From Amphiscolops sp. MND2022 (lineage: Eukaryota), in NCBI GenBank assembly GCA_964187785.1, contig OZ076409.1:12836001-12900000 (forward strand): a DNA stretch of 64,000 nt, read 5' to 3'. Of the stretch, positions 13,831-55,407 are shown one piece after another. The position numbers and the translations under genes were made by a program. The number at the start of each line of letters is the position of its first letter. Within the stretch, counting starts at the first letter, position 1. Under the pieces are notes generated by a model. The model was given only the letters and a program-made list of their open reading frames with translations, had not been told where the DNA came from and ran no database searches.

Positions 13831-13835
13831 TTTTT

Positions 13836-28200: not shown

Positions 28201-28381
28201 AAATACAGAAAGAAATATAAAATGAAAATTTGAAAGAAAGAAAGGAAGTTTGAAGCTTAATGTGAAATTGAATGAAAAATATTTCACAAGTGATAATGAA
28301 AAAAAGAAATCCTAATTGATATAAAATTATAACTAATTTACAAATTGAAACAAACTACCATAACACAAAGATTTCAAAATT

Positions 28382-29833: not shown

Positions 29834-29866
29834 CTATAGAACAATATTTTAACCAATGTTTTAACC

Positions 29867-32522: not shown

Positions 32523-32885
32523 CTTTCATTCAAACCCAAATTCTCACTCGGACCAGTCTCTCCTTTTCAACTCAACTGAAAAATTCACTTGCCTATCACA
32601 ACTCAACTCTCAAACAGAAGACTTCAACTGGATCTTCAGTCCATCTAAAAGACCGAAATTACAGACGTTTCTATTCCTGGAATAGATGCCACTGTGATTG
32701 TTGATGTTTTCAACCCACAATTGTTTCAGTTATTCTCATATTGTAAGTACAATTTAAACTTCAATTTTAACAAACAATTTAATGGATAGAAAAGACATAA
32801 CAAAAATTTTCCTTATTATTAGAAACAGTATAATCAAACGTTATAATCATTATTTTAGCTCTACAAAAACACGCAAGTTTAAATA

Positions 32886-34178
32886 ATGGAATCCTTGCCC
32901 GAAATTGATGTAGTTAATTCTAACCCCTCTGAATTGCTTGCATCCCCTTTGAATATAACTATTCAACAAAATGTTAACGAAGATAATAACTCATCTTCAG
33001 ACTCTCAAGATCCCATGGAAACTATTCCTATTGAACAAGTAGATCATGTTAACGCAAGATCTCAAAAAAGAAAGTACCCAGATATAACTGCAGAAAAACC
33101 TTTTATGGAATCTGGCGCTTGCCCTCCTTTCATAAAACCAGTTAAACAAGATGAAGATAGAGATTGTGAAATAGTTCCTATTCTCTCATCAAAACAATTT
33201 ACCTTCCAATCTCAGTTAACCTCGTTATATATGATTCCAACAAAATACAAATTCATCATCAGAGAACTTAAAAATGATTATCATACTTCAATCGCTTCAA
33301 AATTGATCACCCCATATGATTGGTGGTTAAACAAAAAAGTGAAAATTTTCTCACTCCAATACAATTTCCTCAGACCATCTCCATATGATCTTCGAACCGA
33401 AAAAAATGATGCAAATTTTTTGCCATACCAAATCAAAAAAGCTCATCACATGACTTATCAGAAGTTTCTTCAATACAAAGAGCCCGATAATTATATATTC
33501 TTCAATTCCAAGTATACGTCGCCATTTACTTTCAACTCAGAATATTTGATAGATTATACCAAAAAAAGAGGAAAACTTAGAAATTACGATCCGCTTAAAC
33601 AAAGTTTTCTTTTCCTTCTAAATGATAACCCAAAAAGACAAATCATTGTACCACAAGAATACCTCATTCTGAACGACGATTCGTTATTACAAGAAGATAT
33701 ACCTCAAAATATATCTGAGCCTTTTCCTCCACTTCAACATATAGCCTCTCAACCTCTGGGAGACTGTGAATAATCTTATTTTTACGCAATGACCAAAAAG
33801 GGGTATTCAAATAATGAATTAATTTTCATTATTTTTCACCTGCTTTCACTTCTTACAAATGGAAATCATAAAAAACACAAAAAGACAAAACAAAAATCGC
33901 CAAAGAAAACCAAAAATGACATTCCTCAACCACAAAGTTTTCGCCCAACGGACGAATTACAGAAATATACAGAAATTCTGAACATCATAAAACCTTATCA
34001 TCACCCGAACCGAGATATTCTCATAACAATCGCCGAAATTGTAAATACTCTTGAACAAGCTCGACGCATAATACAAAATATCGTATTTGATACGACAAGA
34101 ATTAGCCAATCAGCTTTGTGTATTCGCACATCATTAGACGAATTCAACTACACAATTGAAAAAATGCACCGATCTTAA
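32886..34178 (+). pseudogene. Element B accessory ORF 1 (~430 aa, one in-frame stop at 33771-33773), function unknown
   Basis: ORFs 32886..33773 and 33789..34178 share a frame and are 15 nt apart; acidic N-terminus, basic KKHKKTKQKSPKK tract. Confidence 0.7.
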
Positions 34179-34701
34179 CTGGTAATTATGGGATAATCAC
34201 TTTAAATTGTTAACACTTATCACTTAATCTCTTAACAACCTGTCAAAATTAATTGAGTCTACACGCATATGCCTGCTATGCATGATTATATTACACGCTT
34301 GATATTAAAATACTCTTTTAAAATAAAATAATACAAAAATTTTCAATCGCGACATGAAAATTTTTAACAAAATTCCTCAATTGCTCCTCCTTTTAATGGA
34401 CCGATTTCAACAAATAAGAACTTATATGAAACATTTTTAAATACCCTTCAAAAGATTTCCAAAATACATCAACTTAATTCTTAAAATTAAAAAGTTATAA
34501 CATCACAAATTACATCAAAAAAATGTCAACTACGAAATTCTATTTTCAAAGGAAACTTTATTGTAAACAAACTAATCTATTTTAGGTGAATATCGTCACA
34601 ACTGCTTCGTCAGCATTCCTTCCTCCTCTCAAGCCGTCCATCCAATCAGAAATCCAACGTATCTTCTACAACTTTCAACAAATTTCATCATATTCTTCAA
34701 T

Positions 34702-35178
34702 ATGACGACACTTCATTCTGGTGACACAGACTGCCCGATAGCTCCTCTTCTTTCAATTCCTTCAGCTCGATTGCGATCCTTGATTCTGAAAAAGCATTTA
34801 ACAACATTAAATGCGCAGCTCAAAACAGATAAAAAGGCAGACCCTCATCTTACAAGAATGATATTGCTCAATATGTTCCAAATATTCCAAATTACACGAA
34901 AAAACTTTGACCAATATCTTCAAATTCATAAACATCCTGATACATATTCAACTCAACGAGACGCCACTGCCCAAACAGAGCATACTACCATCAAGCCCAA
35001 ACTTTTAGTACGAAACTTATCTAACAGAATACGTTCTGAAATGGAAAAACAACGTCTAAATTTCTATTGGCCTTCAGACAATCACGACGATACTGATGAA
35101 GAACTTCAAAAAGACCCTCCAGAAGCACTTCTAGATGATAATTACCCATACAAAACAAATACCTACGTCTCTTTCTGA
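34702..35178 (+). CDS. Element B accessory ORF 2 (158 aa or more), function unknown
   Basis: Sense ORF inside the element; preceded by a CTAAT...TTTTAG acceptor-like site near 34586. Confidence 0.5.
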   Translation: MTTLHSGDTDCPIAPLLSIPSARLRSLILKKHLTTLNAQLKTDKKADPHLTRMILLNMFQIFQITRKNFDQYLQIHKHPDTYSTQRDATAQTEHTTIKPKLLVRNLSNRIRSEMEKQRLNFYWPSDNHDDTDEELQKDPPEALLDDNYPYKTNTYVSF

Positions 35179-36348: not shown

Positions 36349-38241
36349 GGATGCATTTTGCATGGTAGCTAAAATACGAGGAGTGAATCACCTTGATCAT
36401 TGGGGTGCCCAAAATCTTTCAAAGATCTGAGAAGCTCATTCGTGACTTCTAACGGTTTCCTGAGACCCTTTCAGATGCAACGTTCCTTGAGTACTGAGAT
36501 TAGATCGAGTGAAGCTGACTTGTACGATGCTTCCTTTGTTGGCGTTTCTATTGGTCAAAAAGCTCAAACCGAAAGCGTAAGTGGCGTTCTTGGCAGCTAT
36601 ACTAATCGAGCTAATCAACTCGACAGTCTCTTTTCAAGCATGAGTGCAGATAAAAAGTCTTTCATTCAACTTGTTAAAGAGTCTGCAGACACATTGAAGA
36701 GATAAAAAACAGTTTCAGATCAGTGCATGCGTTATCCACATTTGTCATGTTTACCACCAGCATTTTCGGTAAAGAACTGCTAGGATCCCTCCATTCTAAT
36801 CCCCTTGTCTAGTATTCTACTAGAGCAGTTACTCTACCAGTTGCAATGCATTTGCGTAAATTCAACTCATAGCAATAACTAAGTATCACTGTTTGCTTCG
36901 ATGATTATCTAGTTCTTTTGTTTTTCTGTTGAAAACATCAGCTTCAGCATCACGAAGCTACCCTTCATCAAATATTGTGTTTACCATCATGTCTAATGTT
37001 TTTGCTTTACGCGTATATGCTCCACTTCGAAATATGCTTTTTTTGTTGTAGGTCCATTTTTCCGCAGCGGACTTGTCATCCATTGAACCAACGAGTTATG
37101 TTTTTCGTACTTTTTTGTAATAGCTCAAAACTAATACGCCACAAAAGACGAATTCAAGTAGTTCCAAATACGCCCACGACAGGATCACGCCAGTGAGCTA
37201 CACAAGATCTACTGATCATTGTTTAGAATCAGTTCAGACGATTTTTTCAGTATGTATAAACAGCCGTTCCATATGCGAATATCGTTCTGGGAGAGGTCAG
37301 AAACTGGAGAAATACCTCAGATAAGCTCTAAAGAACTAGTTTCCAGCAACGCTTCTATATGAAACTGCAAATACCATTGTGAGATAAAGTTATATTGTTG
37401 GCAGGGACGCGAAATCGAATGCTTAACTACGACGACATCAATTGTGATTGATCGCAGGACTTCGAAGTTTCGAGGCAATCTAATTTTTCAGCGAACAATA
37501 TCTGGTATTTGTTCCTTGTTTTTTATCAACATTGACGCAGAATGGCTTGTATCAAGACCAATGTAAACGTTAAACTTGTGCTTGGTGAACTTCTCATTGA
37601 TCTTGTGTGCGAAATCTCTGCGTTTGTTCTTTGACGTAAAAAAAAAGAGGATAATAGGACTGCAGTTGTGGATTTCGCAACATTTCGTGTTTCTCTCTGG
37701 GGAAGTTTGTCGAGTGAGCGCTTCAAAAATTTGCATCTTAATATAGACCATCAATTTAGTATTGAGTGCTCACAAACTGTGAAAAGCTCAAAAAAAGCGT
37801 GTCTTAAAAATTGGTAAATTTCCTAATTGGCCGATTTCTTCTGTCAAAATAATGATGTAAAATCCTGTTCTGGAACGTTAGTTTCGGTGTCAGTAAGGAG
37901 CAGTAATTGTACGATAGCGTCTTATGAAGTGCTCTAATTTTGTTAATTTTTGAAGTACGAACCTCAAAACCCGAAAATGAAACTGCATATGTCTTCGAGG
38001 TTTGATAATTGAAAAGTCACGAAACTTGTTTGTCGTACAGACAATAAACAACTTACAAAAAACAATTAACTCATCTTTTAAGATCAGGAAGCCAATTTGG
38101 ACTGAGCAAGCAATACTGACAAAAATGTACTAAACATACGAGATATTCATCAAAATATTTGGTCAACGAAATAATGGAAGGTTGTTAGGCAGCCCAGAAG
38201 CGCATAGCTTTATTGAAAAACAAAAAAAATATATTTAAAAC

Positions 38242-40629
38242 TGTTACGAATTACGCTATGATTTTCGTTTTGGGTAGAATTAATTCACACTGTTTTCGTC
38301 GGAGTATAGAAGCTTCTTGTTTCATTTTCTAGTTCTTCCGATACATGGTCTTTTACATTTTCTCTCGTTTCAGATCTCAAGAGTTTCAACATTTCCTTTT
38401 GGGACTCGAGCAAAAGAGTCTTAATCTCAGACGTTATCTCTTCCTTCAGAGAGGACCTTATGCTTTCCAAGAAACTATTTTCTACTCTGGGGACTTAGAC
38501 CTCGAAGGACCTGCTAATTCTACGTTTTGATCTAAAGGATGAGAATTTTCTGTGTTTATTGGCGAAACAAAGCCTTCACTTACATTATCATCAACTTCTC
38601 GCTGGATATTCTTTCTCTTTTGGCTTCGTGTTGTAGACATGTTGTTGAAGAAAGATTTATTCTTGAAGAATTCAATTTTTTCTTTCTGATTTTCAACAAA
38701 GTTAGAAGAATGAGAATAGTTTGAGAACAACAAGTTTGGGACAACTAGGTTGTAGCACTGGTAAAAGACTGAGTCCCTTCGAAAAGTTTGCACTTCCTAT
38801 ATATACCCTCCTAGCATCATCTGATCACGTACATATTTCCAAATTTTTTAAAATATTAGTCATTTCCTGTTTTTTCGGTGAAAAAATCATCAAAATCCCA
38901 AAAGTGCGTCGACATTTCGTCAGTTTTTAAGACACGGCAATTTTAATTTAGCGTTAGTCATCAAACATGATCATATCATTTCATCCGGGCGTCCTTTTGC
39001 TTCCTCCCAAGCAGGAAGTAGATATTACTTCAGTCTGTCAAATCGGAAATGCTTCCCTGTTTTACTGCTTTGGTTCGCGGGAAATTGACGCTAAGATGAC
39101 GCTGACGTGAACAACAAATACCTGATTTTGAAATTCAACTTGATCAAATGCTATGACTAATTCCAAAGTGTGATTATTTGAACGATGCTAAGATGATATT
39201 TTATGAATTTGGACTCACTCTTTCGCTGAAATTAGAATTAAGAATCATGGTATCAAAATAATACTCCATTAGCAAATTTATCATGTCGCGACAAGTGCGA
39301 CAAGTTTTACAAAATTAACAGCAACGTTTGTTAAGTAGCAACGATAATGCAATGCATTTAATGGATAGCAACGATGAATTAGTATGGAAAATATGATTAC
39401 GATCATAAGTATAGCGTTCAATATCAGATGGTACAAAATGCCAAGTATATGAAAATACATTTTCAATACAAAATATACTTTAGTTGAAAGTATAAACTGT
39501 GACTTTCTGATCATTTTACTATGAACTCCCATAGAGGAAAAAATGGGTTGAGTAAGGGAAATCCCTTGTTGTTGAGAAGTGCAAGACGATTAGTTAACGT
39601 AGATTTAAATCAACCTATATGTGTCAAAATCTACCTTAAGTTATTACCTTAAGTTATAGGAATACCTCCTCTATGCTTATCTTACGAATTGAGATAGCTA
39701 GCATGCATTCCCTTTTAACATAATAACGACTTTATTGCGATGAAACCTTGACTGATCTTGCAAATTTATCCATTTTGTTCAATTTCATAAACTTGGCAGC
39801 GTCATGTTGACGAGTTTTCTTGACAGAACTTTGAGCTTTATAAACTTGTCAACGTCATGTTGACGAGTTTTCTTGGCAGAATAGAGATTTGACTAGTTTG
39901 ACGCAATGCTGACGAGTATTTTAGAAATGAGTCTCTCGCTAGCTGCCGGAGCAGTGACGTCACAGTGGCGGTAAATTGGAATGATTTTTGGTAATGCTAT
40001 TAGTATAGGCGGATAATTGGAATGATTTTCTGGTACGCTTATGCGAGGCAGTGACGTCAATTGGTATACCTTCAAACTTGTCTGCGTCTTACTGACGACA
40101 AATATACATATATTCTTATTTTTTCCGCTGCTTTGTTTGCTCAGCGCAATATTGACGTCCTAAACCACACTAATTGCTGTTCAAAGAGTAATTAAGCTGC
40201 CTTTCTTAGAAAAGGCTTAGTTTCTTCGGCGTGCCATCTCAGTGTATTTTCTATTTTAGATCTGATTGATGTTTTTTAGGGGAATGATTTCGACTACGTT
40301 TTTGTTTAGATTAGGCTATGATTTCTTTGTTTTAGAACGTAATTTAATTTAGCTTTCAGGTGGCGAATGTTGCTATTTTGACGTGACAAAAACGTTTCAA
40401 CCGGAAATGTAAGAATCATTTCAAAGCGCTCATTCATTGTAACTAGTTTCATTTGAAATTTCCGTTGATCAGACGTTCAATTTGTTTTTTGTTTTCCTAG
40501 TCACAGTTTATTTGTTAGTTTTAATAGTTAAAGTAAGTTTTTTCGAACCTCGCGGTGCAGCTGGGGCCTCTCCCGAAGCCAATTCTTAAACATCCACAGC
40601 ACAGCCCAGTCCGGGAGCTGACTGTGACA
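38242..40629 (-). repeat. 3' LTR of element C (2388 bp)
   Basis: Direct repeat of 51952-54327. Confidence 0.97.
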
Positions 40630-41272
40630 GGGCCACTGTCATAGGTTTTATCGTCCTCCCAGGGAACCTCGGCTGGTAGAAAGGGTATTGCAGCTCGTAG
40701 ACATTAGGGTCAATTGCTTGGTTCCTGGATGGGGGCATTATCGCCGGGCCTCTTTCTTTATCTAGATCGTTTAGCGATTCTTTCTTCTGTTCTCCCCAAA
40801 CTTTCAGAGGTCCGCGGGGGGATTCAAAATAGGAACATGCATCATCCTCCGTTGCCTGTCTTATGAATTCAGCGACTTTACTGCTAGTCATGGAGGACAT
40901 TTCTTCTTCACAAGGTTTCTCTACTACGAACACGTCTGAGTTCAGCGAGGGATCAGGGCTTTCTGGCGAGTCCGCAATTTCTTCTTCGTTTTCCGACTGA
41001 GGGTACTGTCCCGATTCAACTGTTTCAAAACTCGTGTAAGATTCACTGAGCTTCATCCTCTTACACTCGGTTTCCAGTGAATTTAAGGAGAGGTCTAGAA
41101 ATTCTTCTTCATCTGCTGTGGCTTCCGCTGACGAGTTTAATATTTCCACTATCAGTTTTGGGTATTTCTTGTTATTTTCTGGCAGTGGGGTAGAGGATCT
41201 TGTGATTTCTCCTTCTTCTTCACTCGACGATGAAATGTCAATTAGTTCATATATGTCCATTAAATTGCTCAT
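40586..41272 (-). CDS. Element C acidic Ser/Glu-rich accessory ORF (228 aa from ATG 41272), ending inside the 3' LTR
   Basis: Uninterrupted ORF; ELIDISSSSEEE motif; low complexity. Confidence 0.65.
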   Translation of the reverse strand: MSNLMDIYELIDISSSSEEEGEITRSSTPLPENNKKYPKLIVEILNSSAEATADEEEFLDLSLNSLETECKRMKLSESYTSFETVESGQYPQSENEEEIADSPESPDPSLNSDVFVVEKPCEEEMSSMTSSKVAEFIRQATEDDACSYFESPRGPLKVWGEQKKESLNDLDKERGPAIMPPSRNQAIDPNVYELQYPFYQPRFPGRTIKPMTVALSQSAPGLGCAVDV

Positions 41273-41379
41273 CTTCTTTATTTGGCTTTTCTTCGACTGT
41301 TGACCGTATTTTAATTGTTCCACAATGAATTTCAGCTTTAATTTGGATTAAGGAGAATATTGGAAAATTCCCTCCATTC

Positions 41380-41700
41380 TGATTGGCTGTTCAAATATTT
41401 TAATCTTTTTAATCTTCAGATGTTGACGTTATGTCGACATTGCATTTTTATTGGCTGTAAATTGAAATAACTTAGTTAGCAAAACTTGTCAACGTTATGC
41501 TGACGTCATTTTGTTAGCTTGGCTAACTTTTTGATTTTGTCACCGTTTTGATGACGTCATTTTAGGTAATAGGATTAATTTCTTAACCCTGATAACCTTT
41601 TTGTTGACGTTATGCCGACGTCAATGTCGTTGGTAATTAGCCAACTTTCATTTTTGTCACCGTTATGGTGACGTCAGTTTGGTTGTTGTTTTCATCATTT
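41380..41700. promoter_or_regulatory. Candidate internal bidirectional promoter of element C
   Basis: Lies between two divergent ORFs; ATTGG (CCAAT) boxes near 41382 and 41450; TGACGTCA at 41501, 41552 and 41669; repeated GTCAMC-N5-GNTGAC palindromes. Confidence 0.55.
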
Positions 41701-41725
41701 CTCTTTTCCAGATTGCCTTTGAAAG

Positions 41726-44700
41726 ATGTCTTCCTCGCGCCGTGTTTCTGGTTTCCAGAGCGGTCACGATACCCAATTCGTCTTCTCGGAAGGAGAAGTT
41801 CGAGACAGTGAAGCCGATGCCCCTGCTTTGCAGCTTGCTGCTGGTGAGTTTTCATCCCTCCATCCATTAAGCTTTTGTGAATAATATTCTCTACAGATAG
41901 GCTTTTTCTGTTTTATATTTTCACAGCTTAGATTTTCTGACGCGTCGTTATGGGATGTTTCTTTGTTGTTAGATCCAACGTTCTCTTCTCCTTTGGCTGG
42001 GGCTTCTGTCTCCCATCTCGAAACCTCCCTTCCTGCTGATCTTTCTGGAATTTCAATTGAACCCATTGCTGAGTCTACTCATCGCGTTGGCGATTCTTCT
42101 GTCACTGTTGGCGCTGCAAATGCTCCCAATCCATCTCCAGCTTGTTCTGATTCAGATGTTCCTCTGGCTGCTGTTGCTAGAAGTGTTAATCCTTCTGGGA
42201 CAGTTGCCACTCGCGGAGGTGAGGGGTCTCCCCCTACCCAAGAGAATGTTGTCGGGAGTCAGAAAACTGTTTCGCCTCGGTTTTCATCCTTCTTGCACAA
42301 ATTGCAGACGACGGACGATGATGATGATCGCCTCACGGGGTCTAAGCATGGTGAGTTGATTCGATTATGTATGCACTTGACTGTATGGGTCTTTGTGGTT
42401 GGGGGGTTTTTTTGTTGTTGTTGGGTGTTGGAGTTGTATTTGCTGTTTTAGTGCGGTTGGTGGTTCCTGACAAGGGTGGTTCCGGAGTTCAGTCGACGTC
42501 AAGGTAATGTGTTTCACTGGTACCTGTTGTTGCCCCTCCAGTCGTTCGTTTCTCCTTCGCTGACAGTGGGGAGGAGGATGCAGAACCTGGCTCATCGCAA
42601 CGAGTGAGCAATCAGCGTCCATCGATGGATGTTGATAACGTGTCAGTGGACCCCTTTGTTGCCCGTAAGTGAAAACCATTGTGTTTGGTGTTTGTCTTGG
42701 GATTTGCATATGAGATAGATAGGTCTTTCTTTTCGTTTTGAGAATCAGTTGCTTGTTTTTCGGTTGTTCTCCTTTTTGCCTTGTCATTCTTTAAAATAGT
42801 TAGGGATAGTCATGTTATGTTGGTGAATTTATTGTAGGTTTTGAAGAGCTGCTCAGTCGTATGGAGTCGACTCTCGAGGTCGCTGAGCGGGGTCGCAAGC
42901 GCGTTTATAGTCCTCGCAATCGTCTTCGTCGGGATATGGTTACTGGGAATCCTAAATACGAGCTCTTCGTCAGTGGTTCCAGTACTGGTTCCGACAAGCT
43001 GTTCCATTGCATGATATGTCAACGAGACGTTTCAATGGAATCGCGGGGTGCCGCCGAGTTCAGCAGGCATTTCTTCGGGAAACGACATTGGCAGCTTGAT
43101 GTTACGTATCGAGTTCAGAACGGTTTGCCAGTGTATAATCGCCTGATGGACCCGATGACTTTGAGTGAGGTAGAATTGGAGGAATATCGTAGTCGGCCCA
43201 GCAAGGGGAAAAACGAGGGTTTCAGTTTTCCTGAAGACCTGCTTCCTGCCTGTGCCCAAATAAACTCAAGTGTGCCCTTGATGTCGATGATTAACTGCCT
43301 CATTGAGTTGTTGCGATTTGGAGGAAGCTACCTTCTGTTGCGGAAGTTGTGGGGGTGCTTTCGAGCGACACTTGGGCCTGACAGTCCCTTATACAACCTA
43401 TATTGGAGTCGTCCTGAGTCTCTGGTGAGTACTGCATTTCTTCGTCTTTTAGTGTGTTGAACATTCAGGTTATGAGTGGGAAGTTTGGAAGTTTGATTGT
43501 CGTTTTTGGGTATTTGTGTTGGACGTGTGGTGAACGTCGGGTGTTGTATTTTAGTTGTTGATTTTCCAAGCTCTGTTTCCGCGTGTGTTACGTTCCCTGA
43601 TGTCCCGGATCGCCGCTTTTCGGGAATACAGCATGTTCTTCATCGAGAGTGGTGAAGATCATAATTGCCTCGTCCAAACCTGGGATGATCATACGTTAAT
43701 GAGTGTCTGTGTGCGAGTCGAATCAGTGGGGCAGCGTGTTCCTGAGGCTGAGTTGGCCGGATTGTCACGTGTCATTGACGGTACTTCCTCTTGTCAGATG
43801 CCCTTGTGCTGTCAGGGGTGTAGTCCGACGCTGTTGCGTATGCTGAGTGACAATCGAGTGGACGGACGTGAGTTCGTCGTGTACCGTGAGTTCAGTGAAG
43901 GAGGTGTTCTTGCACTGTTATGAGCTGGCCCATCAGGAAGTGTTTGGTGGTTTGGACACTACTGCCATGATTGACTTCCTCATGCTCCGATTACGTGGGG
44001 CTGTGCAAGAGCCGTGGTGCGAAGGTGTACCTTGTCTTCGCCGATGCATTGTCGCTGGACGTGTTGCGTTCGCAGACTTGCGTGATGTCGTCACTGATTT
44101 GATTGCTGTTTGGGCATCTGTGCAGGATTTCGTCAAACATACTGTCCCTCGTCATTTTAAAACCGGAGCTGGCAGGGTAATTCATATTTGTTTGATTTTC
44201 TTTTGTTGTTTTGTTGTTTTCCTTCTCTCTCTCTCTCTCTTTTGTGTTGTCATCGTTTGTGTTGCTAAGTTGATATATGATGAATTGCATTCTTATTTGC
44301 AGATGTGTGGCACTGACTGGCATATCTATTCGGAGATTACGAGTGAGTTGCGACTTGGACTTCTCCTGCACGTCCTCGATCTTTGTGAGTACAGTTTCTT
44401 GATATTTGGACTTTACCGGCAGAGTGTAGTTGTATGTTGTTTATTGGGTGGTAGTGTTAAAGGAATCCGTCAGTCTTGTGTCAGGTATGATTTAGGTATT
44501 GTGTTTTAGATCATTGCACCTTTAAGAAACAGTTGTCGTGTCGAGCTGACTACGCCTTTCATGCCAATGTGGAAATTTGTCAGTTCGTGCACTGCCCGTT
44601 ATCACGTAGTCGCAAGATTGGTTCTCTTCCAAGTTTGAATTCGTCGGAGGAGTACATGGACCCGCAGAAGCTTGATGGTTTTGAGTGAATTGATTCCGTC

Positions 44701-45759
44701 GATTTCCTCAGAAGCCATGACTTTGGTGCTGTTCTGCGACGTCACAAGGGTGGTGAGGGCCGTGCGTTTCGGGATCAGTGCCTCAAATTCGTCGATCGCT
44801 TTGTTTGTGTCATACTGCGACAGCAGCCTGTGACAGGAGATTTCTCTCAAGGAGTTTATGCATTTTGCCCTGAGCTTTTGTTGGAGGGAGACGACCATCA
44901 CATGACGGACTTGTTTCGTAAGCTTGTCCGAGTATTGGAGCGGTGTGGTGTTGTGTCGTCGTTGGAATCAAAGTCTGCTGTGGAAGAGTACGCTTCGTTT
45001 GTTGTTGTTGTGGATGCTCGGGCACGACACGCTGGTTCCAACAGCTGTGCCGAGGCTATCGACGACGTTCGTCAGTATTTGCTGGACGATTACGGATTCT
45101 TAGCTCGCAAGTCGTTGTGTCGGGTGTTCAAGTTGTGCTGCCTTGTCGTCCTGAAGCCACGGGTTGACTTCCCTGCAGTTGACATTGGCCTCAGTGATTG
45201 TAGAGTGCCTGAACGTGTGGTTGCAACGTGTATTCGAGGAGTGCAGAGCAGCGTTATGTCTCCCGGGTTTAAGCTGGGATCATTTTTTACAAAGTTCACT
45301 ATGGGCGAGGTTCGCAAATCAATCGCTGCTGCTAGTTCCTTCATGACTGCTGCTGATTTCAATCCGTGGGAAGGTATATGTGGTGAGAATCAATCTGCCT
45401 TTGTTGACCGTTATAGAGATGTGTTCAAGAAACAGGTCAGTCGCAAGAGAGGTGGTGTCATTGGGCAGTCCCTTGGTGTGGGAACATCTAGTCGTGATGC
45501 TGCGGCTGTTGATGGCGAAGGGTGTTTTTCTCAGTGTGAGAGTCTGACTGCTTCCACCGTTTCTGCCCCAGCTGATTCTGCCACTAGTACTTGTAGTCTG
45601 TTTGGTTTGAGTAAGGTGCAAGTACATCAGAGCATAGCTTCCTTACTTGGTCGAAAGAGAGATGCTGAAGAGGTTGGTGAGTCATCGTCAAAGAAGGATA
45701 AGAAAAGGTCTAGACAGTCAGTTGTTAAAGATGATGAGTCCCGTTCGAAGAAAAAGTGA
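41726..45759 (+). pseudogene. Antisense 7-exon cargo gene of element C (~1,080 aa), zinc-finger protein resembling an inactive hAT transposase
   Basis: Exons 41726-41843, 41973-42350, 42452-42664, 42838-43424, 43555-44176, 44303-44384, 44510-45759; all six introns GT-AG and phase-matched. Lesions: TAA 42505, frameshift ~43900, TGA 44686. Confidence 0.82.
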
Positions 45760-45962
45760 GCTTTGTCGTCTTGGATTTCCAAACTTTTGTAGCGTAGTTT
45801 ATATTATTTATTTGTTTCTGTATTTGTATAGTGGACTGTGTATATTATTAGAAGAAAACCGGACGTATAGAGTTCGGCTGGAGTCATTCACTTTGTAGTA
45901 TGTCTATAATTGAAAATCGTCAAATCGGTTCGATTTGGACTCCAGATATTATCTTTTCCTTC

Positions 45963-48900
45963 TTAGAGAGTCGTAGTTATAGCGTCGAGTCGTCTGAAAT
46001 CAGGGTTAGCGTTAGGTTTAGGATTAGGTCTCAAATTGTACTTTGCTGTTTTTCGCGGGTTATATCCGACAACTGTAGGCGGTGATCTTGGGGGAATAGG
46101 TGGACTTTCAAGGGGTGGGGGGCGGCGTATGTATGGGTTATCCCCCACGTCTGTAGTAAGATTTGAAAAATCCGGAGACGGTGGCGCCTCGTCATTTATG
46201 TCATCGGTTTGGTTTCTTGGCATTTGAGACGTCGTGGCTTCGTCATTCGTATTTGTCACTTCTTGTATTTTTGCGTGTTGGTTGTTTTCTGTACTTTTTC
46301 ATGTTTTGTGTTCATCAATCTGTTTTCCGAAATCCATTTCCCACGATACCGCGTACCACTCGTTGTGTGACACTTTGACGTCTGGATCGGGAAGATATTC
46401 GTTTGCTCGTACTGTGACGTCAGGCACGCGTTGCTCTGGCACGTAAGGTCGTGTGCGAATTCTGTGTAATGTTTGTGTATATCGTGTGCCAATTTTTTGT
46501 ATCGTGTAATTATTATTTGAGAGCACTTCGATTACTATGTACGGTCCCGTCCAGATACAATCTTGAAACGCAAACTTTGTCGATTGATTGTCGGCTTTCG
46601 GATTGAGGATGTAGCAATAATCATTTAGTTTGAGCGGAGCTGCCGACGCTTTACGGTCATAATACTTTTTGTATTTGAGGTAAGACAGCATGATGTTGTC
46701 TTTCGCTGTCGCTCGCACTTCATCGATTTGTTGTTGTAGCTGCTCTGTTATATCTGAATTTGGCGTAGTTTTCCACTTTGGCTTGATGCCTAGTTTTAAA
46801 TCGAGGACGCTGTAGGGTATACGTCCGTGGAATACTGTAGATGGTTCGCAGCCTAGGGTTTCATGATACGTTGTATTATAGTTCATGACTGCGATCTGAA
46901 CGTATTTGTGCCACATTGATCGTCTTTCACCCGTCGATATTTTTAGTGCAGTTTTGATTGAAGCGTGTGTCCTTTCTAGGATGCCAATCGTTTGTGCATG
47001 TTTCGTGGATGCATGGCTAATTTGGATTTCGAGTATGTGCATTATTTCTGCGACGACTTCTGATCTGAATTGAGAGCCTTTATCTGACAAAATTAAAGTT
47101 GGCAGATATGCGTGTCTGGTCATGACGTCGACAATGCATCGTCCAATTGCTGTGACGTTCTGTGTTGGGTATGCGAATAGATATGGGTATGCGAATAGAT
47201 AGCGTGAAAATACATCAATCATCGTAACAATGTTTTGGTATCCTGCAGATTTGGGTAGATTCGGTAATATGTCAATCTCGAGAATGTCTTCCGGGCCCAG
47301 GACATGTTCTGTGTTGTTGATCATCTTTGGTCTGATTTGGCTGTTGCTGATTCGTTTGTATTTGATGCAGTCTTCACATTGCATTACCCATTGTCTAATT
47401 CTTTTTGCTAAGCTAGGGTAGTAATACTTTGATCGACATTCTTGGATCCTTTTTGTGATCCCTGGGTGTTTTCCCATTTGTCCATGGATTGCTTTCAGGA
47501 GTTCTGTAATCAAATGCTCAGGGATTAGTATTTGGTTGTGTGTGACTTGACCGCATTCTCCGTAGTATTTGCGCATTAGTACTCCATCTTTGACTATGAG
47601 TCTGTTTTCGTGGACTAAGAGGCGTTTGGCTTTCGGATCTGTTTGTAGTAGGTGTTTGTCGTATTCTTCGCAGATCAGTTTTCTCTTGATTGCTTTGAAA
47701 ACTAAGTCTGCGTCTTGTTCAACTCTAATGCGTGCGTCTTCCTTGATTGCCCCAAAGGTGTATGATGCCTTGTTTTTTGGGATTGGAGTTGTTTCTTTTA
47801 TTGACAGCTTTATTTTCGTCGTCTTCTCATCTCGTGCATTTTGTATTGCTTGTTCCGTTTGTAGAAGAATTTCCTCTTCTGTTTCAATCGTTTCCTCTGG
47901 GAGAAAAAAGAGTTGTTCTTCATCTGCGACGTCTGTCGATTGAAGGTTTACCTGTATTGGTTGGATCGTAATATCGTTTCGGATTTTTAGTTCAACTTTT
48001 TCCTTGGGGTTAAGGTCAATTCGCGACAAGAAGTCGGCAGCAGTGTTTTGCGTTCCTGCTACGTGCATGATGTGAAAATTGAACTGTAGTACGTAGTCAC
48101 ATGCGTTCCATAGTGTGGGGGGAATTGCTTTTGTTTGAAAAAACCTGGTTACTGATCTATTGTCGGTCATTATGAGGGTTGGTAGGGTTGTTTCCCACAA
48201 TATGTGGCTATATTCTAAAAATGCGTGGTAGATTGCCAGAAATTCTTTGCACTAAATTGACATCTTCAGTTGCGCAGGTGAAAATACTTTTGATCCAAAT
48301 GCAACAGGCGCAAAAGTTTTCTTTTTGGAGTTGAGTTTTTTGTCGTTTTCTTCTTCGATCATTAGCGCATAACCTGAGGCGCGAAAACTAGCATCCGTCA
48401 TTAGGACGTATTGTCGTCCTGTGATTGGTTGTTTGAGGGCTAGTCCACATGCTTCCGCTAGTGCTGCGTTGATCGCTTTGTAGTGATCTAGCAGTTCTTC
48501 TGTGACTTTGATTTGTTTGTCAGCTTTCAGTAGTTCGTAGAAACCAAGTAGCTTTTCTGACAACCGCGGGATATAGTTGCGGTAGTAGTTGACAAAGCCT
48601 ATGTATCTCTGTACTTGTTGCTTTGATTTCGGGAATCGTACATTTGCTAAGAATTTCTGGATTTTGTGGTCTTGGGGGCGATTCCTTGTGGGGTGATCGT
48701 TCTTCCAAGGAATTCGACCTCGGTTACTCCAAAATGGCATTTGTCGATGGATAGTTTGAGTCCTGCTTGTCTAATGCACTCGAAGACAGCTCGGATGTTT
48801 CGTATCAGTTGCGTCACGGAGTTAGCGGCTATTCCAATGTCGTCCACATACTGCGCGCATTGGTCAGCCTTGATTACTTTGTCCAAATATTCTCTCATGA

Positions 48901-50912
48901 AACTAGAGAATGCTGACAATGCTCTGCTCAGTCCTTGTGCCAGGCGTTTATATGCAAACGTTCTGCTTGCGAAGTTGAATGCCAGCATTTCGATTGATCT
49001 CTGGTCAGCCATTTGCAGACAGTGATATGCTTGAGAGCAATCTAATTTACAGAATAACCTTTTCCCAGCTAGGTGTTGAGCTGCGTCTGACAGGGTGCTG
49101 ACTGGGTGGTTGTTGTTGATGTAATCGTCCGATATCAGTGCGTTGATTTTTCGCAGGTCGACCAGTAAACGTAGTTTACCGTTTGGTTTGCGTTGTGCGA
49201 AAATCGGGCTGGCATATTTTGAAAATGGTAATGTCGTGATTATACCATACCTATGCATTAGTGCCAAGTTCGACTGTTAGGTCTTCCTTGAGGTTGATTG
49301 GCACTGGCAGGCTCTGTGTGTATATGGGTCGTTCGTCTTTTGGCGTCAGTTTCACTTTGAAGCTATTATTGATACCATGGTCGAGTCTGTGACGCACAAA
49401 GATGTCGCTGTATTCAACTATCGTTTGCTCCAGCTGTTTCTTGTCGTTTCCCTCAATCTGTGATCCTTCCCAGTTGAACATGTCAAGGAAGTCTTTCCTT
49501 GATTCTGGATCTTTGGTGGGATCAAGTTGTTCTTTTTTTATGAATTCTCTGATTTCTTTTAATATTCGCCTTTGTATTGGCGTGTGTTCATCTTCATTTC
49601 CCGGGTTTTCGGGTGTTGGGAACCAGAGGTTTTCGTCATTTTGTTCATTGTTTGTGGATTTCATGAGCTCATTTACATACATGAGGGTGTCATCTGGATC
49701 TTGTAAGGTGGTCAGCGTTGCGACGTCTACAGGTCGTATTTGTTTGGTGTCCTCTGGCCTCAGGATTTGTAATTCTGCCAATTTGGTGTGGTTTTTTATG
49801 GTGTGCGGGAAATCTGTCAACTTGGCTATTCGGAGGTTGATTCGTTTGTTGTGAGCTGTGGCTAGTGCTGGTGCAACGATGATGGTGGCTGTTTCATCAA
49901 ACTGTGGTAGCGGTTGTACTGCCCCTGTGATGTCGATTGCATTGGTGGTTATGACTATTGCATTAACGGTTGTTGTTTGTTGTGGCGGCAACGTCTGGTG
50001 CCCTTCAGCCATGATTTGGAGCGGTTTGGGGTTACGGTTTTTCTTTTCATCTGTCATGGCTAATGTCATTTCGACATGGGGGAAGGTGATGGTTCCATTG
50101 GCTGTATCTATCACTGCTTGGTGGTTTCTCATGAAGTTCAGTCCGATTATGGGGAATGACGTCTTTGATAGTATGACAAAGGTGTCGGTGAACGTGTATG
50201 TTCCGATATTGAATTGAATGTCTGCAGTGGCAATTGGTTGCTCTAGTTGTGCGTTCGCACATTCGATCTTGAAAGGGGGTTGTGGATACTCCTTTATGAC
50301 ACAATTATCGCTGTTCATTTTGATGGCGTTGTAATCGGACCATGACATGGCATTGATGAACCCTCCTGAGTCGACAAGGCCGTCCATTGTTAATTCGCCA
50401 AATTCCAGTGGCAAGTAAAGCATTCGTCTTCTGTTCTTGAGGACTATTGTTGAGTGGAGTGGTATATAAGTGTTACCGTCTTTTTCAGTTACATATTCTT
50501 TATTTGAGTTGAGGAAGGTGGGGAAGTTTTCGTGGAAGATAGGTGACCCGGTGGAGTCGTGTTTATCTTTCTCGGACATTTGCGACGAAGTGCAGGCGTC
50601 GTGGACGTTTTCAACTGGGTTTCCTTGGGTCTGAGCAGCGGGTTCTTTAGTGGTGATGATTGGTTGAGAGGATGTTTTTTGGTGATGTTGGCAATCGTTT
50701 CTGTAATCCTGATTGTTTGGAGGTGTTACCTTTTGATCCTCTTGTGGCGGGCGTCGTTTCATAGATGCGATTGCTTGTTGTCTCAGCCATGCTTCTGATG
50801 GGGTGCCTGAGCACTCTACAGTCGTGTCGTTGGTATACGTTGTTGGGGGTTCTTGTGGAGAATATGCCCTCGCGTCTACTGTTTCCCCAAAGCGCAGGCG
50901 CGGCGTAATTAG
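45963..50912 (-). pseudogene. pol: Element C pol (PR-RT-RH-IN), disrupted by frameshifts (~49262, ~48672, ~46300) and a stop (48252)
   Basis: LVDSG protease; YASPIF..RK..GKLRLLVDLR and YVDD RT; TDAS RNase H; H..GKHPG...CEDC, DIL/SDKG/ERTH integrase; WTGPY. Confidence 0.95.
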
Positions 50913-52351
50913 TTTTTTGATTCATCATCGGGTTGGTTTGTTGAGTGTGTGACGGAGGTGTCCCTTTTACTTTCTTGTGTGTTGTGACGCTTAGGTCGTG
51001 GGTCGTTGGCAGTATTGGCTCCGTTCCAACAATCCTCTGTTTTGTGGGGTTTGCCGCAGGTATCGCATCTGGGTGGTTTGCCTGCACTGTGGTTGGTTGG
51101 TCCGTTGTTTCTTCGGGTTTGCATCCATTTGTCTCTTTTCATTTTACGACATTCAGCTTTATGATGTCCAAATTTGTTACAATAGAAGCAGTACCCTTTT
51201 TTAGTAGTTTGAGCGGTAGTTTCCACTGATTTAGGTTCAGTTTTTGTTTGGGCAGGTTCAATTTTGTTTAAGGGCACTAACGTTACCTCGTCTGGCGCTC
51301 CTAGTCCATTGAGACGCATTTCCCTTTCCAGGTGAAGTACTATGTCGTTATAGGGTTTGTCTTCGAGGTATGCGCGGTTTAGTATTTTCTTGACGTGGTC
51401 TGGCATTTTGGCGTATATAGCCTTGTCTATGAATTGCTGTGCCTCTGTTCCAAAAGCTTCTTTTGCAGTTCTTTTTAGTACATCCAGGAATTCGTGGAGT
51501 TTTTGTGTCGAGGGGTCAAATTTTAGTGCGTCCCATTCGCATCTAGCCTTTGCCATCGACAGGTAGTCCCCAAATCGTCGTTTGAATATCGTTATATACT
51601 CGTCTAGTGAGTCTTTCTTCGAGTCTTCAATGTTGCAAAAGGCTTGTAAGGCGTCTCCCCGGAGTAGGGAGTGGAAGTAGTTTATCTTTTGTATTTCCGT
51701 AAGCTGCGGATACATTTTGATATTATTCCAAAAGAGATCTTCAAAGAGCTCAAATTTTTCGGATTTCCCGTCAAAAGTTGGGAGTGACGCCGTTAGAGCT
51801 TTTGGCATGGGTAGCATCGTGGTGTTATTTTGGTCTGGGGCGAACAAGGTTCGCGTTATTGCTGGGCGTTCTTTTGACGAGGGTTGGCTTTGAGATCGAA
51901 TCTTCGTTCTCTTGGGTTGATTGGTGGAGTCGTTTAAAACTCCTGTCACCATGTTACGAATTACGCTATGATCTTCGTTTTGGGTAGAATTAATTCACAC
52001 TGTTTTCGTCGGAGTATAGAAGCTTCTTGTTTCATTTTCTAGTTCTTCCGATACATGGTCTTTTACATTTTCTCTCGTTTCAGATCTCAAGAGTTTCAAC
52101 ATTTCCTTTTGGGACTCGAGCAAAAGAGTCTTAATCTCAGACGTTATCTCTTCCTTCAGAGAGGACCTTATGCTTTCCAAGAAACTATTTTCTACTCTGG
52201 GGGACTTAGACCTCGAAGGACCTGCTAATTCTACGTTTTGATCTAAAGGATGAGAATTTTCTGTGTTTATTGGCGAAACAAAGCCTTCACTTACATTATC
52301 ATCAACTTCTCGCTGGATATTCTTTCTCTTTTGGCTTCGTGTTGTAGACAT
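50909..52351 (-). CDS. gag: Element C gag: LTR-encoded N-terminal part (52351-51998), in-frame TGA at 51995-51997, then an intact 347-aa ORF from ATG 51952
   Basis: TFDGKSEKFELFEDLF core; knuckles CFYCNKFGHHKAEC and CDTCGKPHKTEDC; the upstream LTR ORF is in frame across 14 sense codons. Confidence 0.9.
51940..51951 (-). promoter_or_regulatory. Primer binding site TGGTGACAGGAG of element C
   Basis: Immediately follows the 5' LTR; identical to the element A PBS. Confidence 0.85.
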
Positions 52352-54327
52352 GTTGTTGAAGAAAGATTTATTCTTGAAGAATTCAATTTTTTCTTTCTGA
52401 TTTTCAACAAAGTTAGAAGAATGAGAATAGTTTGAGAACAACAAGTTTGGCACAACTAGGTTGTAGCACTGTAAAAGACTGAGTCCCTTAGAAAAATTTG
52501 CACTTACTATATATACCCTCCTAGCATCATCTGATCACGTACATATTTCCAAATTCTTTAAAATGATTATTCATTTCCTGTTTTTTCGGTGAAAAAATCA
52601 TCAAAATCCCAAAAGTGCGTCGACATTTCGTCAGTTTTTAAGACACGGCAATTTTAATTTAGCGTTAGTCATCAAACATGATCATATCATTTCATCCCGG
52701 CGTCCTTTTGCTTCCTCCCAAGCAGGAAGTAGATATTACTTCAGTCTGTCAAACCGGAAAAGCTTCCCTGTTTTACTGCTTTGGTTCGCGGGAAATTGAC
52801 GCTAAGATGACGCTGACGTGAACAACAAATACCTGATTTTGAAATTCAACTTGATCAAATGCTATGACTAATTCCAAAGTGTGATTATTTGAACGATGCT
52901 AAGATGATATTTTATGAATTTGGACTCACTCTTTCGCTGAAATTAGAATTAAGAATCATGGTATCAAAATAATACTCCATTAGCAAATTTATCATGTCGC
53001 GACAAGTGCGACAAGTTTTACAAAATTAACAGCAACGTTTGTTAAGTAGCAACGATAAAGCAATGCATTTAATGGATAGCAACGAGGAATTAGTATGGAA
53101 AATATGATTACGATCATAAGTATAGCGTTCAATATCATATGGTACAAAATGCGAAGTATATGAAAATACATTTTCAATACAAAATATACTTTAGTTGAAA
53201 GTATAAACTGTGACTTTCTGATCATTTTACTATGAACTCCCATAGAGGAAAAAATGGGTTAAGTAAGGGAAATCCCTTGTTGTTGAGAAGTGCAAGACGA
53301 TTAGTTAACGTAGATTTAAATCAACTTATATGTGTCAAAATCTACCTTAAGTTATTACCTTAAGTTATAGGAATACCTCCTCTATGCTTATCTTGCGAAT
53401 TGAGATAGCTTGCATTCATTCCCTTTTAACATAATAACGACTTTATTGCGATGAAACCTTGACTGATCTTGCAAATTCATCCATTTTGTTCAATTTCATA
53501 AACTTGGCAGCGTCATGTTGACGAGTTTTCTTGACAGAACTTTGAGCTTTATAAACTTGTCAACGTCATGTTGACGAGTTTTCTTGGCTGAATAGAGATT
53601 TGACTAGTTTGACGCAATGCTGACGAGTATTTTAGAAATGAGTCTCTCGCTAGCTGTCGGAGCAGTGACGTCACAGTGGCGGTAAATTGGAATGATTTTT
53701 GGTAATGCTATTAGTATAGGCGGATATTTGGAATGATTTTCTGGTACGCTTATGCGATGCAGTGACGTCAATTGGTATACCTTCAAACTTGTCTGCGTCT
53801 TACTGACGACAAATATACATGTATTCTTATTTTCTCCGCTGCTTTGTTTACTCAGCGTAATATTGACGTCATAAGCCACACTAATTGCTGTTCGAAGCGC
53901 AATTAAGCTGTCTTTCTAAGGAAAGGCTTAAATCATTCGGTGTGTCATCTCGGTGTATTTTCTATTTTAGATCTGATTGATGTTCTTTTGGGGAATGATT
54001 TTGACTACGTTGTTGTTTAGATTAGGCTATGATTTCTTTGTTTTAGAACGTAATTTAATTTAGTTTTCAGGTGGCGAATGTTGCTATTTTGACGGGACAA
54101 AAACGTTTCAACCGGAAATGTAAGAATCATTTCAACGCGCTCATTCATTGTAATTAGTTTCATTTGAAATTTCCGTTGATCAGACGTATTTTTGTTTTCC
54201 TAGTCACAGTTTATTTGTTAGTTTTAATAGTTAAAGTAAGTTTTTTCGAACCTCGCGGTGCAGCCGTGGCCTCTCCCGAAGCCAATTCTTAAACATCCAC
54301 AGCCCAGTCCGGGAGCGGACTGTGACA
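51952..54327 (-). repeat. 5' LTR of element C (2376 bp), with TATA-like box (52508-52515) and AATAAA (52367-52372)
   Basis: Direct repeat of 38242-40629. Confidence 0.97.
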
Positions 54328-55407
54328 AAAACATTTTGGAATCAAAGAGAGTTTGAACAATATCTCCTAACGGTATCGGCAAAAGTTGCATGTCAAGATG
54401 CTCGAAGATGTTTATGACGCATCCATTTTTTTCTTTCTGACTCAAAACTAAGTTCCAATATTGTTTCATGGCAGTTCCATAGTTATTCTGGAAAATGCTT
54501 AGAAGTTTGATTTTCTGGGTCTCTGACAGAATGGTGTAGCTCTGCCCAAAATGTTCTTCAAGATTGTAACAACTTCTCGGATCCCAAATCGACCAACTTG
54601 TTCAAATCTTTTGTCCTCTTTGGGACTCGGCACCACTTCAAGTTGTAGTTAATGAAACTTTCATCGAGATTTACGTTCAAGCGCGTGACTTCAGTTGTCT
54701 CCACGATTTCACATGAAAAATTGGAACCTGGAGCAATGAGTTGTATGTCAGGGTCCGCGGACCTAATACAACAGCTGCTCAGTATTCAAAGGCGAATTCA
54801 AGTTTCAAGCCGTCTCTGGTTCGTACTGCTTGGACAAAACTCAGGAACAAGTCAGTTTCTTATAAAAAGACTTTGTGCAAGAATTTCAGTCGAATAACTC
54901 CCTCTTATTACTCTCAGCTGTTATTATTTTCATATTCTGTGTTCTCGATTCCTAGCGAACAATGCACTTTAGTGATATCAATTCTCTGCTCAAGTTGATG
55001 TCAGGTTCCTGTTCTCGAAATTTCTGAAGTAAAAAACTAAAATATTTAGTCATCGACCATTTTCTCGCTCAAGCATCAACTTTTGCTCAGGTCGTGATAA
55101 GTATGAAACATGAATTTTTCAGTCAACTATTCTTTGCCCGAACATGACTCAACATTTTGTTTGACGACCGCACAATTAGAGAAATTGAACTATTCTTGCA
55201 GCAGATAAGGTAAGCTAATTTACAGATATGTTGATTTTTTTTTTGATGTGATCAACAGTCAAGAAAGACCTCTAATCACTAATCTTGACACTAACAACGA
55301 TAAATTGCAAATTACTAAGAAACAACGCATGGTATCGACACTCCACAAAGGTCGGTATGTGGCGCTAGATGTTTGGTCACATACAGCAAGTCCACGATGG
55401 TCCATCA

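Follow-up and report, generated by a model that had tools for sequence, protein, structure and literature searches.

The 64,000-nucleotide stretch analysed here (the window; positions 12,836,001 to 12,900,000 of the forward strand of contig OZ076409.1, assembly GCA_964187785.1, Amphiscolops sp. MND2022) contains a slightly decayed copy of a Ty3/Gypsy-like long terminal repeat (LTR) retrotransposon from an abundant family, and this element carries an intron-bearing gene antisense to its own coding region. The protein encoded by this gene is predicted to adopt the fold of hAT transposases, and on balance we favour the reading that this Gypsy lineage carries an inert hAT-fold protein which acts as a nuclear DNA-binding factor for the element. 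The first-pass annotation of the window had proposed that the region 43008..45170 encodes a catalytically dead hAT transposase domesticated by a retroelement, and its central proposal is supported by the analysis described below.

The antisense gene and its copies

The gene comprises seven exons on the plus strand (41726-45759), is located between the integrase region and the 3' LTR of the minus-strand element, and would encode a product of 1082 residues if the copy were intact. The gene model is based on reading of the sequence and on alignment of the window with nine other genomic copies (10 copies in total), and its exons are as follows:

41726..41843, plus strand: exon 1; ATG at 41726, with the ATG and the GT donor kept in 10/10 copies
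41973..42350, plus strand: exon 2; Ser/Pro-rich and probably disordered (the open reading frame [ORF] 'orfp'), omega (ratio of non-synonymous to synonymous divergence) 0.4-0.55, phases fitting exons 1 and 3
42452..42664, plus strand: exon 3; TAA at 42505-42507 in the window copy, one continuous exon in other copies
42838..43424, plus strand: exon 4; basic helix, C-x2-C-x16-H-x5-H finger, and helical region ahead of the core
43555..44176, plus strand: exon 5; beta1-beta5, which form the N-terminal half of the RNase H-like core, and the first part of the helical insertion domain
44303..44384, plus strand: exon 6; a single insertion-domain helix
44510..45759, plus strand: exon 7; remainder of the insertion domain and C-terminal portion of the core, then a Ser-rich tail whose end is basic

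The intron phases (1, 1, 1, 0, 0, and 1) are mutually consistent, and the GT..AG boundaries are kept in 10/10 aligned copies for introns 1-5 and in 9/10 for intron 6. The reading frame of the window copy is disrupted three times: by the in-frame TAA in exon 3 (42505-42507), by a frameshift within 43870-43900, and by a TGA, also in frame, at 44686-44688. Copy L011 has no stop at the corresponding exon 3 codon, and exon 5 is a single frame in copies L011 and L013-L018, in contrast to the frameshifted window copy. The span given by the first-pass annotation thus lies within a real gene, but the gene is larger and divided among seven exons. All peptides quoted in that annotation are present in plus-strand frames at 42810-45759, which correspond to exons 4-7: the finger peptide FHCMICQRDVSMESRGAAEFSRHFFGKRH (C-x2-C-x16-H-x5-H) in the ORF at 42810-43460, YSMFFIES in that at 43555-43923, HCYELAHQEVFG in that at 43847-44509, and FRDQCLKFVDRFVCVILRQQP...FCP, LFRKLVRVL...SAVEEYASF, and LCRVFKLCCLV in that at 44689-45759.

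Scanning of the 1.07-Gb genome identified two clades of the gene. Clade 1, which includes the window copy, is represented by 114 scored last-exon matches (55-94% identity, from 6543 first-look candidates), 107 of which contain no stop in the match. Clade 2, whose core is encoded by one long exon of about 870-910 residues, is represented by 51 scored matches from 11,115 first-look candidates, 28 of them without a stop. At least 165 scored copies were thus found in the two clades and are present on all large contigs, and the genome probably contains thousands of copies of the gene. Intron content differs between lineages of the gene: intron 6 is cleanly absent from copy L018 (G000:C4:6289000-6298999), and the whole core lies in one exon at the clade-2 loci L042, L045, and L046, so that introns 4-6 are absent there. 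These introns are antisense to the genomic RNA.

The clade-1 layout is identical in all nine loci fetched, with the integrase (and the reverse transcriptase [RT], where reached) on one strand and the exons on the other, followed by orfm, an accessory ORF of the element. The clade-2 gene was found in the same place and orientation in the three loci fetched, inside a sister retroelement family whose RT, integrase, and gag are 78-80%, about 51%, and 41-45% identical to those of the window element, respectively. Position and orientation of the gene are therefore constant in 12/12 element loci examined, belonging to two families. Because the gene has the same place and orientation in both families, the partnership between gene and element is taken to be older than the split of the two families. 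Two of the three sister-family loci have direct LTR pairs of about 2.07 kb, and their identity of 99.6-99.8% indicates that this family moved very recently.

Comparison of the window with eight divergent copies gave omega values of 0.02-0.06 for pol, with synonymous divergence (dS) of 0.4-1.9, and of 0.04-0.21 for exons 5 and 7 (0.11-0.14 for exon 7), with dS either >1 or too saturated to compute. No other part of the protein is as well conserved as exon 4 (78-95% amino acid identity), which has an omega of about 0.04 in 2/8 divergent copies, those for which dS was computable. In the comparison with L011, the only near-identical copy, omega was 0.5-1.0, as expected for decay after insertion. 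The low omega values (0.04-0.14 between copies of the gene, against saturated dS), the predominance of stop-free copies, and the conserved GT..AG boundaries indicate that purifying selection acts on the antisense gene, which is thus much more than an ORF that arose by chance.

The protein family extends to other genomes. A full scan of 1.84 billion representative proteins yielded 295 matches to the last exon at E <= 0.001, and also 19 near-full-length proteins of 528-890 residues. All homologues outside this genome are ENA predictions without a name, and because every match is of this kind, repeat masking probably hid the family. A search with the last exon for longer homologous proteins found none, and a scan of metagenome contigs with two single proteins found no relative.

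Predicted fold and catalytic positions

An AlphaFold2 model was obtained for P0124, an 890-residue clade-2 homologue, from a 33-row alignment that included the exons of the window. The model has a predicted local distance difference test score (pLDDT) of 77.7 and a predicted template modelling score of 0.67, with blocks of pLDDT >90 over residues 250-790. Residues 273-358 begin with three antiparallel strands, after which strands four and five are each preceded by a helix; ~300 residues of helices come next, and then further helices; the modelled protein is thus a predicted RNase H-like core split by a large all-helical insertion domain. The exons of the window align along the entire length of P0124 (tblastn, E 1e-15 to 1e-22, four segments), and the fold assignment therefore carries over to the protein of the window.

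In a Foldseek search of PDB with this model, 12 matches were obtained at E <= 0.001, and the 10 listed were all Hermes (E 3.2e-6 to 4.9e-4, probability 1.0); the match at rank 13 had an E value of 0.048. VIA-align 2 placed residues 206-729 of the model on residues 116-609 of six Hermes entries (Z 12.6-13.8, 379-402 residues, root-mean-square deviation [rmsd] 5.2-6.1), and the best pair aligned residues 210-728 with Hermes 116-609 over 400 residues (Z 13.8, rmsd 6.1). The next folds were ISCth4 transposase (Z 6.7), RIG-I-like helical domains (about 6), and RAG1 (5.5), and the P element and Transib transposases scored lower still (4.8). In BFVD, the sole Foldseek match at E <= 0.001 was a Pandoravirus protein described as 'HAT family C-terminal dimerization region'. 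Feature neighbours in the ESM Atlas had weak scores (0.79-0.84), and the named ones listed (0.79-0.82) were mostly hAT-derived (DUF4371, ZBED5-like, DUF659, and Dimer_Tnp_hAT); these neighbours serve as a lead only. RNase H-like and hAT matches were thus found, specific to Hermes in both structural searches and accompanied by a hAT match in BFVD, in agreement with the hAT-fold origin proposed by the first-pass annotation.

Like Hermes (PDB 2bw3, 4d1q, and 8edg), the protein has a predicted core with an all-helical insertion domain and C-terminal helices that can be followed up to Hermes residue 609. The catalytic triad of Hermes, which we take to be D180, D248, and E572, provides a reference for the core. 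True hATs are abundant in the same genome (150 scored matches to PF05699); one of them aligns to Hermes at E 1e-26, where the Hermes motifs coincide with its D (LTSDIW), D (ITDNA), and E (PSERVW), and the D, D, and E are invariant in all six true hATs of this genome that were compared. By topology, the triad sites of P0124 lie in beta1 (FSITFKS, 273-279), after beta4 (SLRGCS, 333-338), and in the first helix after the insertion (674-687), and no conserved acidic residue is present at any of these three sites in an alignment of both clades. A further conserved acidic residue of the core, D270, lies away from them. It is inferred from the model that the protein is no longer a DDE transposase. 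The catalytic loss claimed by the first-pass annotation is borne out to this extent, but its more specific statement that the first Asp is replaced by Ile cannot be fixed at the residue level without a structural alignment.

The surroundings of the gene also differ from those of a hAT transposon. No inverted repeats of >= 40 nucleotides were found at 36-56 kb of the window, and around the gene there are neither terminal inverted repeats (TIRs), apart from short imperfect pairs of the chance type, nor an 8-bp target site duplication (TSD). The mobile unit is instead the LTR element, which has a 5-bp TSD. With no intact DDE triad, TIRs, or 8-bp TSD, and with the gene in the same place at every element locus examined, the view that the gene is carried by a retroelement and is not an ordinary nested hAT is upheld.

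The finger (C-x2-C-x16-H-x5-H) is located at the N-terminus, where hATs carry their BED finger. Both Cys residues and the second His are invariant across the family, and the first His is kept in about 90%. When exon 4 was folded alone (pLDDT 68.5), two short strands followed by helices were predicted around the finger, and a wide PDB search with VIA-align gave generic helical-repeat matches (Z <= 5.8). No Pfam match to zf-BED was obtained for the ORFs of the window. The conserved spacing agrees with the BED-like finger of the first-pass annotation; a BED identity is suggested by the spacing pattern only, with no significant fold match, and 'BED-like' remains a description of the spacing and position of the finger.

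Several results weigh against the reading of an inert hAT-derived protein. The hAT assignment comes from a structure predicted from a shallow alignment of 33 rows, and the modelled P0124 belongs to clade 2, shares 19-34% identity with the exons of the window, and is not the protein of the window itself. At the sequence level, Pfam gave no family at E <= 0.1 for six exon ORFs of the window and 12 homologues, except for one chance-level match to FANCI_S1, and Dimer_Tnp_hAT (PF05699) and related models were accordingly without a match at this threshold. A PDB sequence profile search with the family alignment gave nothing below E 1.1, and hhalign of this alignment against the six true hATs returned a probability of 0.07% and no match, with no detectable counterpart of the CxxH and RW motifs of hATs. 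The motif-by-motif parallels to hATs drawn by the first-pass annotation therefore have no statistical support. The catalytic positions were placed by the topology of secondary structure and not by superposing individual residues; a Glu at the beta1 end (F-x-E) is retained in clade 1 but not in clade 2, and the conserved acidic residues E304, E314, and D/E347 of the core are located away from the triad sites. For the exon 4 model, Foldseek returned no significant match, and the BED finger of ZBED2 appeared at rank 19 (E 7.6).

In operational terms the protein is outside the hAT superfamily, since it has no triad, TIRs, or sequence match. From its predicted structure, it appears to descend from this superfamily and to work like a domesticated hAT.

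The host retrotransposon and other elements of the window

The element occupies 38242-54327 on the minus strand (16,086 bp). Its LTRs, both of ~2.39 kb, begin with TG and end with CA, show 97.07% identity over 2390 columns, and have the 5-bp TSD AAAAC on either side. Composition is strongly strand-biased across 40-52 kb of the window. The Pfam domains follow the order gag, weak protease, RVT_1, and RT_RNaseH_2, and then Integrase_H2C2 and rve, and pol holds in-frame stops, one of which is at the 48251/48252 boundary. The LTR ends, the short TSD, the site resembling a primer-binding site (PBS), and the integrase located after RT are all as expected for a Ty3/Gypsy-like element. Apart from the antisense gene, its features are as follows:

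38237..38241, no strand: left TSD AAAAC, directly before the LTR start at 38242
38242..40629, minus strand: 3' LTR, matching 51952-54327, TG...CA ends
40586..41347, minus strand: orfm, an accessory ORF of 253 residues, acidic and rich in Ser, with the same sense as the element, its end inside the 3' LTR, and no Pfam match
41345..41716, no strand: conserved promoter-like block that separates orfm from the hAT-like gene and contains TGACGTCA palindromes as well as ATTGG (CCAAT) boxes
46299..48251, minus strand: integrase (Integrase_H2C2, rve, and Integrase_p58_C; Pfam)
48252..49276, minus strand: RNase H and reverse transcriptase (RT_RNaseH_2; RVT_1, E 1.8e-24; Pfam)
49251..51994, minus strand: gag (DUF1759 and Retrotrans_gag) and protease region (weak Asp_protease match, E 0.015; Pfam)
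51940..51951, minus strand: PBS-like TGGTGACAGGAG adjoining the 5' LTR, read from the sequence
51952..54327, minus strand: 5' LTR, from repeat comparison
54328..54332, no strand: right TSD AAAAC, directly after the LTR end at 54327

A 179-residue open frame in the 5' LTR (51995-52534, minus strand), which is in frame with gag with one stop between them, was considered as an extension of gag and rejected, because its counterpart in the 3' LTR is not open and gag homology with the sister family begins at the LTR edge; the frame is probably due to chance.

The block at 41345-41716 (~370 bp) is 85% identical in nucleotide sequence to the eight divergent copies, whereas the identity for exons 1-3 is 46-58%. 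Besides its ATTGG (CCAAT) boxes, it contains exact TGACGTCA palindromes at 41501, 41552, and 41669, together with near-copies. The window as a whole has 13 TGACGTCA sites where 1.04 would be expected, and most of them fall within this block or the LTRs. These features suggest that the block is an internal promoter, probably bidirectional, that serves the antisense gene and orfm on opposite strands. In the LTRs, TGACGTCA sites were found at 39955, 40052, 53666, 53763, and 53864 (two or three per LTR), and a tandem pair of 45-nucleotide repeats (39784-39881 / 53495-53592) contains GCGTCATGTTGACG-like motifs resembling the internal block. Intron 1 (41844-41972) is 81% identical to the eight divergent copies, compared with the 46-58% of its flanking exons, and contains a near-invariant block, CACAGCTTAGATTTTCTGACGCGTCG, which could be a cis element of either strand.

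The accessory ORF orfm was found in 9/9 clade-1 loci with 38-89% amino acid identity, and its omega was about 0.2-0.4 in the 4/9 comparisons with computable dS. In the sister family, a 265-residue ORF at the LTR edge (L042, 3982-4779) is the positional counterpart of orfm but shows no detectable similarity to it.

Three further regions of the window contain element-like sequences. A second retrovirus-like element (20536-35178, plus strand) lies in a strongly A-rich region with C in excess over G and has matches to Retrotrans_gag, RVT_1, RT_RNaseH, and rve; its 723-residue ORF at 29840-32011 matches a Monjiviricetes viral fusion glycoprotein family (E 8.5e-23), and the whole has the appearance of a Gypsy-type element with an env gene. 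On the minus strand, 12556-15574 is a fragment of a related element that contains a gag region (36% identity over 311 residues) and a C-terminal piece of integrase (41%), with no Pfam match, and has two TGACGTCA sites, at 12867 and 12912. An ORF at 770-1774 (plus strand) has a weak match to Exo_endo_phos (E 1.6e-4) and is possibly an endonuclease of a non-LTR retrotransposon.

Possible roles of the protein and relation to known systems

In the mechanism that we propose, transcription of the antisense gene would start in the block at 41345-41716, rich in CCAAT boxes and in cAMP response element (CRE) sequences, and would be directed away from orfm. Retrotransposition would leave the introns in place, since they lie antisense to the genomic RNA and would never be spliced from the reverse-transcribed template, which may explain how a multi-intron gene can be kept in a retroelement. 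The product would no longer cut DNA. It would be nuclear, as its basic C-terminal tail suggests, and would use its finger and transposase scaffold to bind DNA. It is a tentative proposal, held with slightly less than even confidence, that this domesticated inert transposase is the sequence-specific DNA-binding factor of the element, switching on its promoters or steering its integration without involvement of the host. The likeliest function would be regulation of the element's own transcription, with tethering of the integration complex to chromatin less likely; taken as a part of the overall reading, regulation of the element's own promoters falls just short of an even prospect.

A role in integration instead of transcription, with the protein attached in the nucleus to chromatin or to specific DNA and serving as a tether for the pre-integration complex, is rather unlikely. 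Chromodomains and other targeting modules tether other LTR elements, and the same DNA-binding anatomy of a finger and a transposase-like scaffold would suit this task, as would the strongest constraint on the finger exon and the history of the hAT scaffold, which evolved to hold DNA ends. However, the gene is apart from pol and on the opposite strand, which makes delivery as part of Gag-Pol impossible, and the information on insertion sites consists of a single TSD.

The remaining explanations concern the origin and activity of the protein and are less probable. The resemblance in fold may mislead, the protein being an accessory factor with an RNase H-like core of non-hAT descent, such as another RNase H-fold protein. 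The lack of detectable sequence similarity to hATs, the shallow alignment behind the model, and the presence of ISCth4 (Z 6.7) and RAG1 (5.5) in the match list are consistent with this explanation, but we regard it as improbable: the score of Hermes is double that of any other fold, in an alignment of ~400 residues that takes in both the insertion domain and the C-terminus, a second and independent library (BFVD) gives only a hAT protein, the named language-model neighbours listed are mostly hAT-derived, and the N-terminal finger sits at the BED position and completes the hAT domain order. It is still harder to envisage an active nuclease or recombinase with unconventional residues, which would provide the element with a second reaction at the DNA level, such as excision, processing of cDNA ends, or integration. 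The core is well conserved and well folded in the model, it has conserved acidic residues in or near it (D270, E304, E314, and D/E347), and clade 1 keeps the Glu at the end of beta1; yet none of those residues is at a triad place of RNase H-fold transposases, the beta1 Glu is not kept in clade 2, TIR-like ends are absent, and the element has its own intact-type integrase. An ordinary hAT transposon nested in the retroelement by chance is in practice excluded. Such nesting occurs frequently in repeat-rich genomes, and this genome has many true hATs, but the gene is found in the same place and orientation in 12/12 copies from two families with saturated synonymous divergence, has neither TIRs nor a DDE triad, and shares a conserved promoter-like block with orfm.

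The inert hAT-fold protein that we favour resembles hAT transposases in the position of its finger, which is like that of BED, and differs from them in having no sequence match, conserved DDE, TIRs, or 8-bp TSD. Unlike hAT transposons, the gene rides in an LTR retrotransposon, and its clade-1 form contains six introns. Host-domesticated hAT/BED proteins (the ZBED family, DREF, and DAYSLEEPER) are derived from transposases, often catalytically inert, nuclear, and DNA-binding, and they provide the best functional analogy; proteins of this kind are also among the language-model neighbours, with weak scores. Whereas the host-domesticated genes are single-copy or low-copy, the gene described here has at least 165 scored copies, with each examined copy inside an LTR element and not at a fixed syntenic host locus. 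Because every copy examined lies inside a mobile element, the domesticating party would be the retrotransposon and not the host.

In layout, the nearest parallels are in plants. According to two reports, most or all copies of Retand, Grande, and RIRE2 contain extra ORFs that are antisense and situated between pol and the 3' LTR, and gene23 of Grande was shown in the first of these to have its own antisense promoter (PMC7264820, PMC11963269 for the ORFs; PMC7264820 for the promoter). The encoded proteins are described there as having a TRP28 domain (PF04195) or no known domain, with a function that is not known and a suspected DNA-binding or regulatory role, and the word 'intron' occurs 0 times in both reports (PMC7264820, PMC11963269). 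The gene of the window shares the position and orientation of the Retand/Grande type (12/12 loci), but it encodes a hAT-fold protein, has up to six introns, and gives no match to PF04195 at E <= 0.1, so the likeness is one of layout only. HTLV-1 HBZ and HIV-1 ASP, small bZIP or membrane proteins that are encoded antisense and transcribed from the 3' LTR (as cited in PMC7264820 and PMC11963269), offer a loose parallel of an antisense retroelement gene encoding a nuclear regulator, in which the CREB/CRE axis of HTLV may be set beside the CRE palindromes enriched here. The protein of the window, in contrast, is a 1082-residue transposase-fold protein whose gene is probably transcribed from the internal block. 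In rotifers, LTR elements have captured other types of ORF3 (PMC5408684).

No LTR retrotransposon with a hAT-like antisense gene was found in the open full-text literature, Repbase and subscription journals being outside the scope of this search. Coe1 of sugar beet (PMC2426827) is reportedly among the nearest literature matches. An antisense accessory gene in an LTR retrotransposon is thus a known arrangement, and what appears to be new is the predicted class II origin of the protein, the intron-rich structure of its gene, and its putative private promoter.

Transposase domestication is known as something that hosts do. The gene described here would represent the domestication of a transposase by another mobile element, with the retrotransposon rather than the host as the beneficiary. 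The partnership appears to be old, being shared by two families with an integrase identity of only about 51%, as well as abundant and recent in its activity, with sister-family LTRs that are 99.6-99.8% identical. In animal-type or other non-plant retroelements, it may correspond to the antisense ORFs, themselves unexplained, of Retand and Grande in plants, here with a recognizable fold that suggests DNA-binding functions, and it would provide a natural case of a multi-intron gene kept within a retrotransposon, with the presence of introns varying by lineage.

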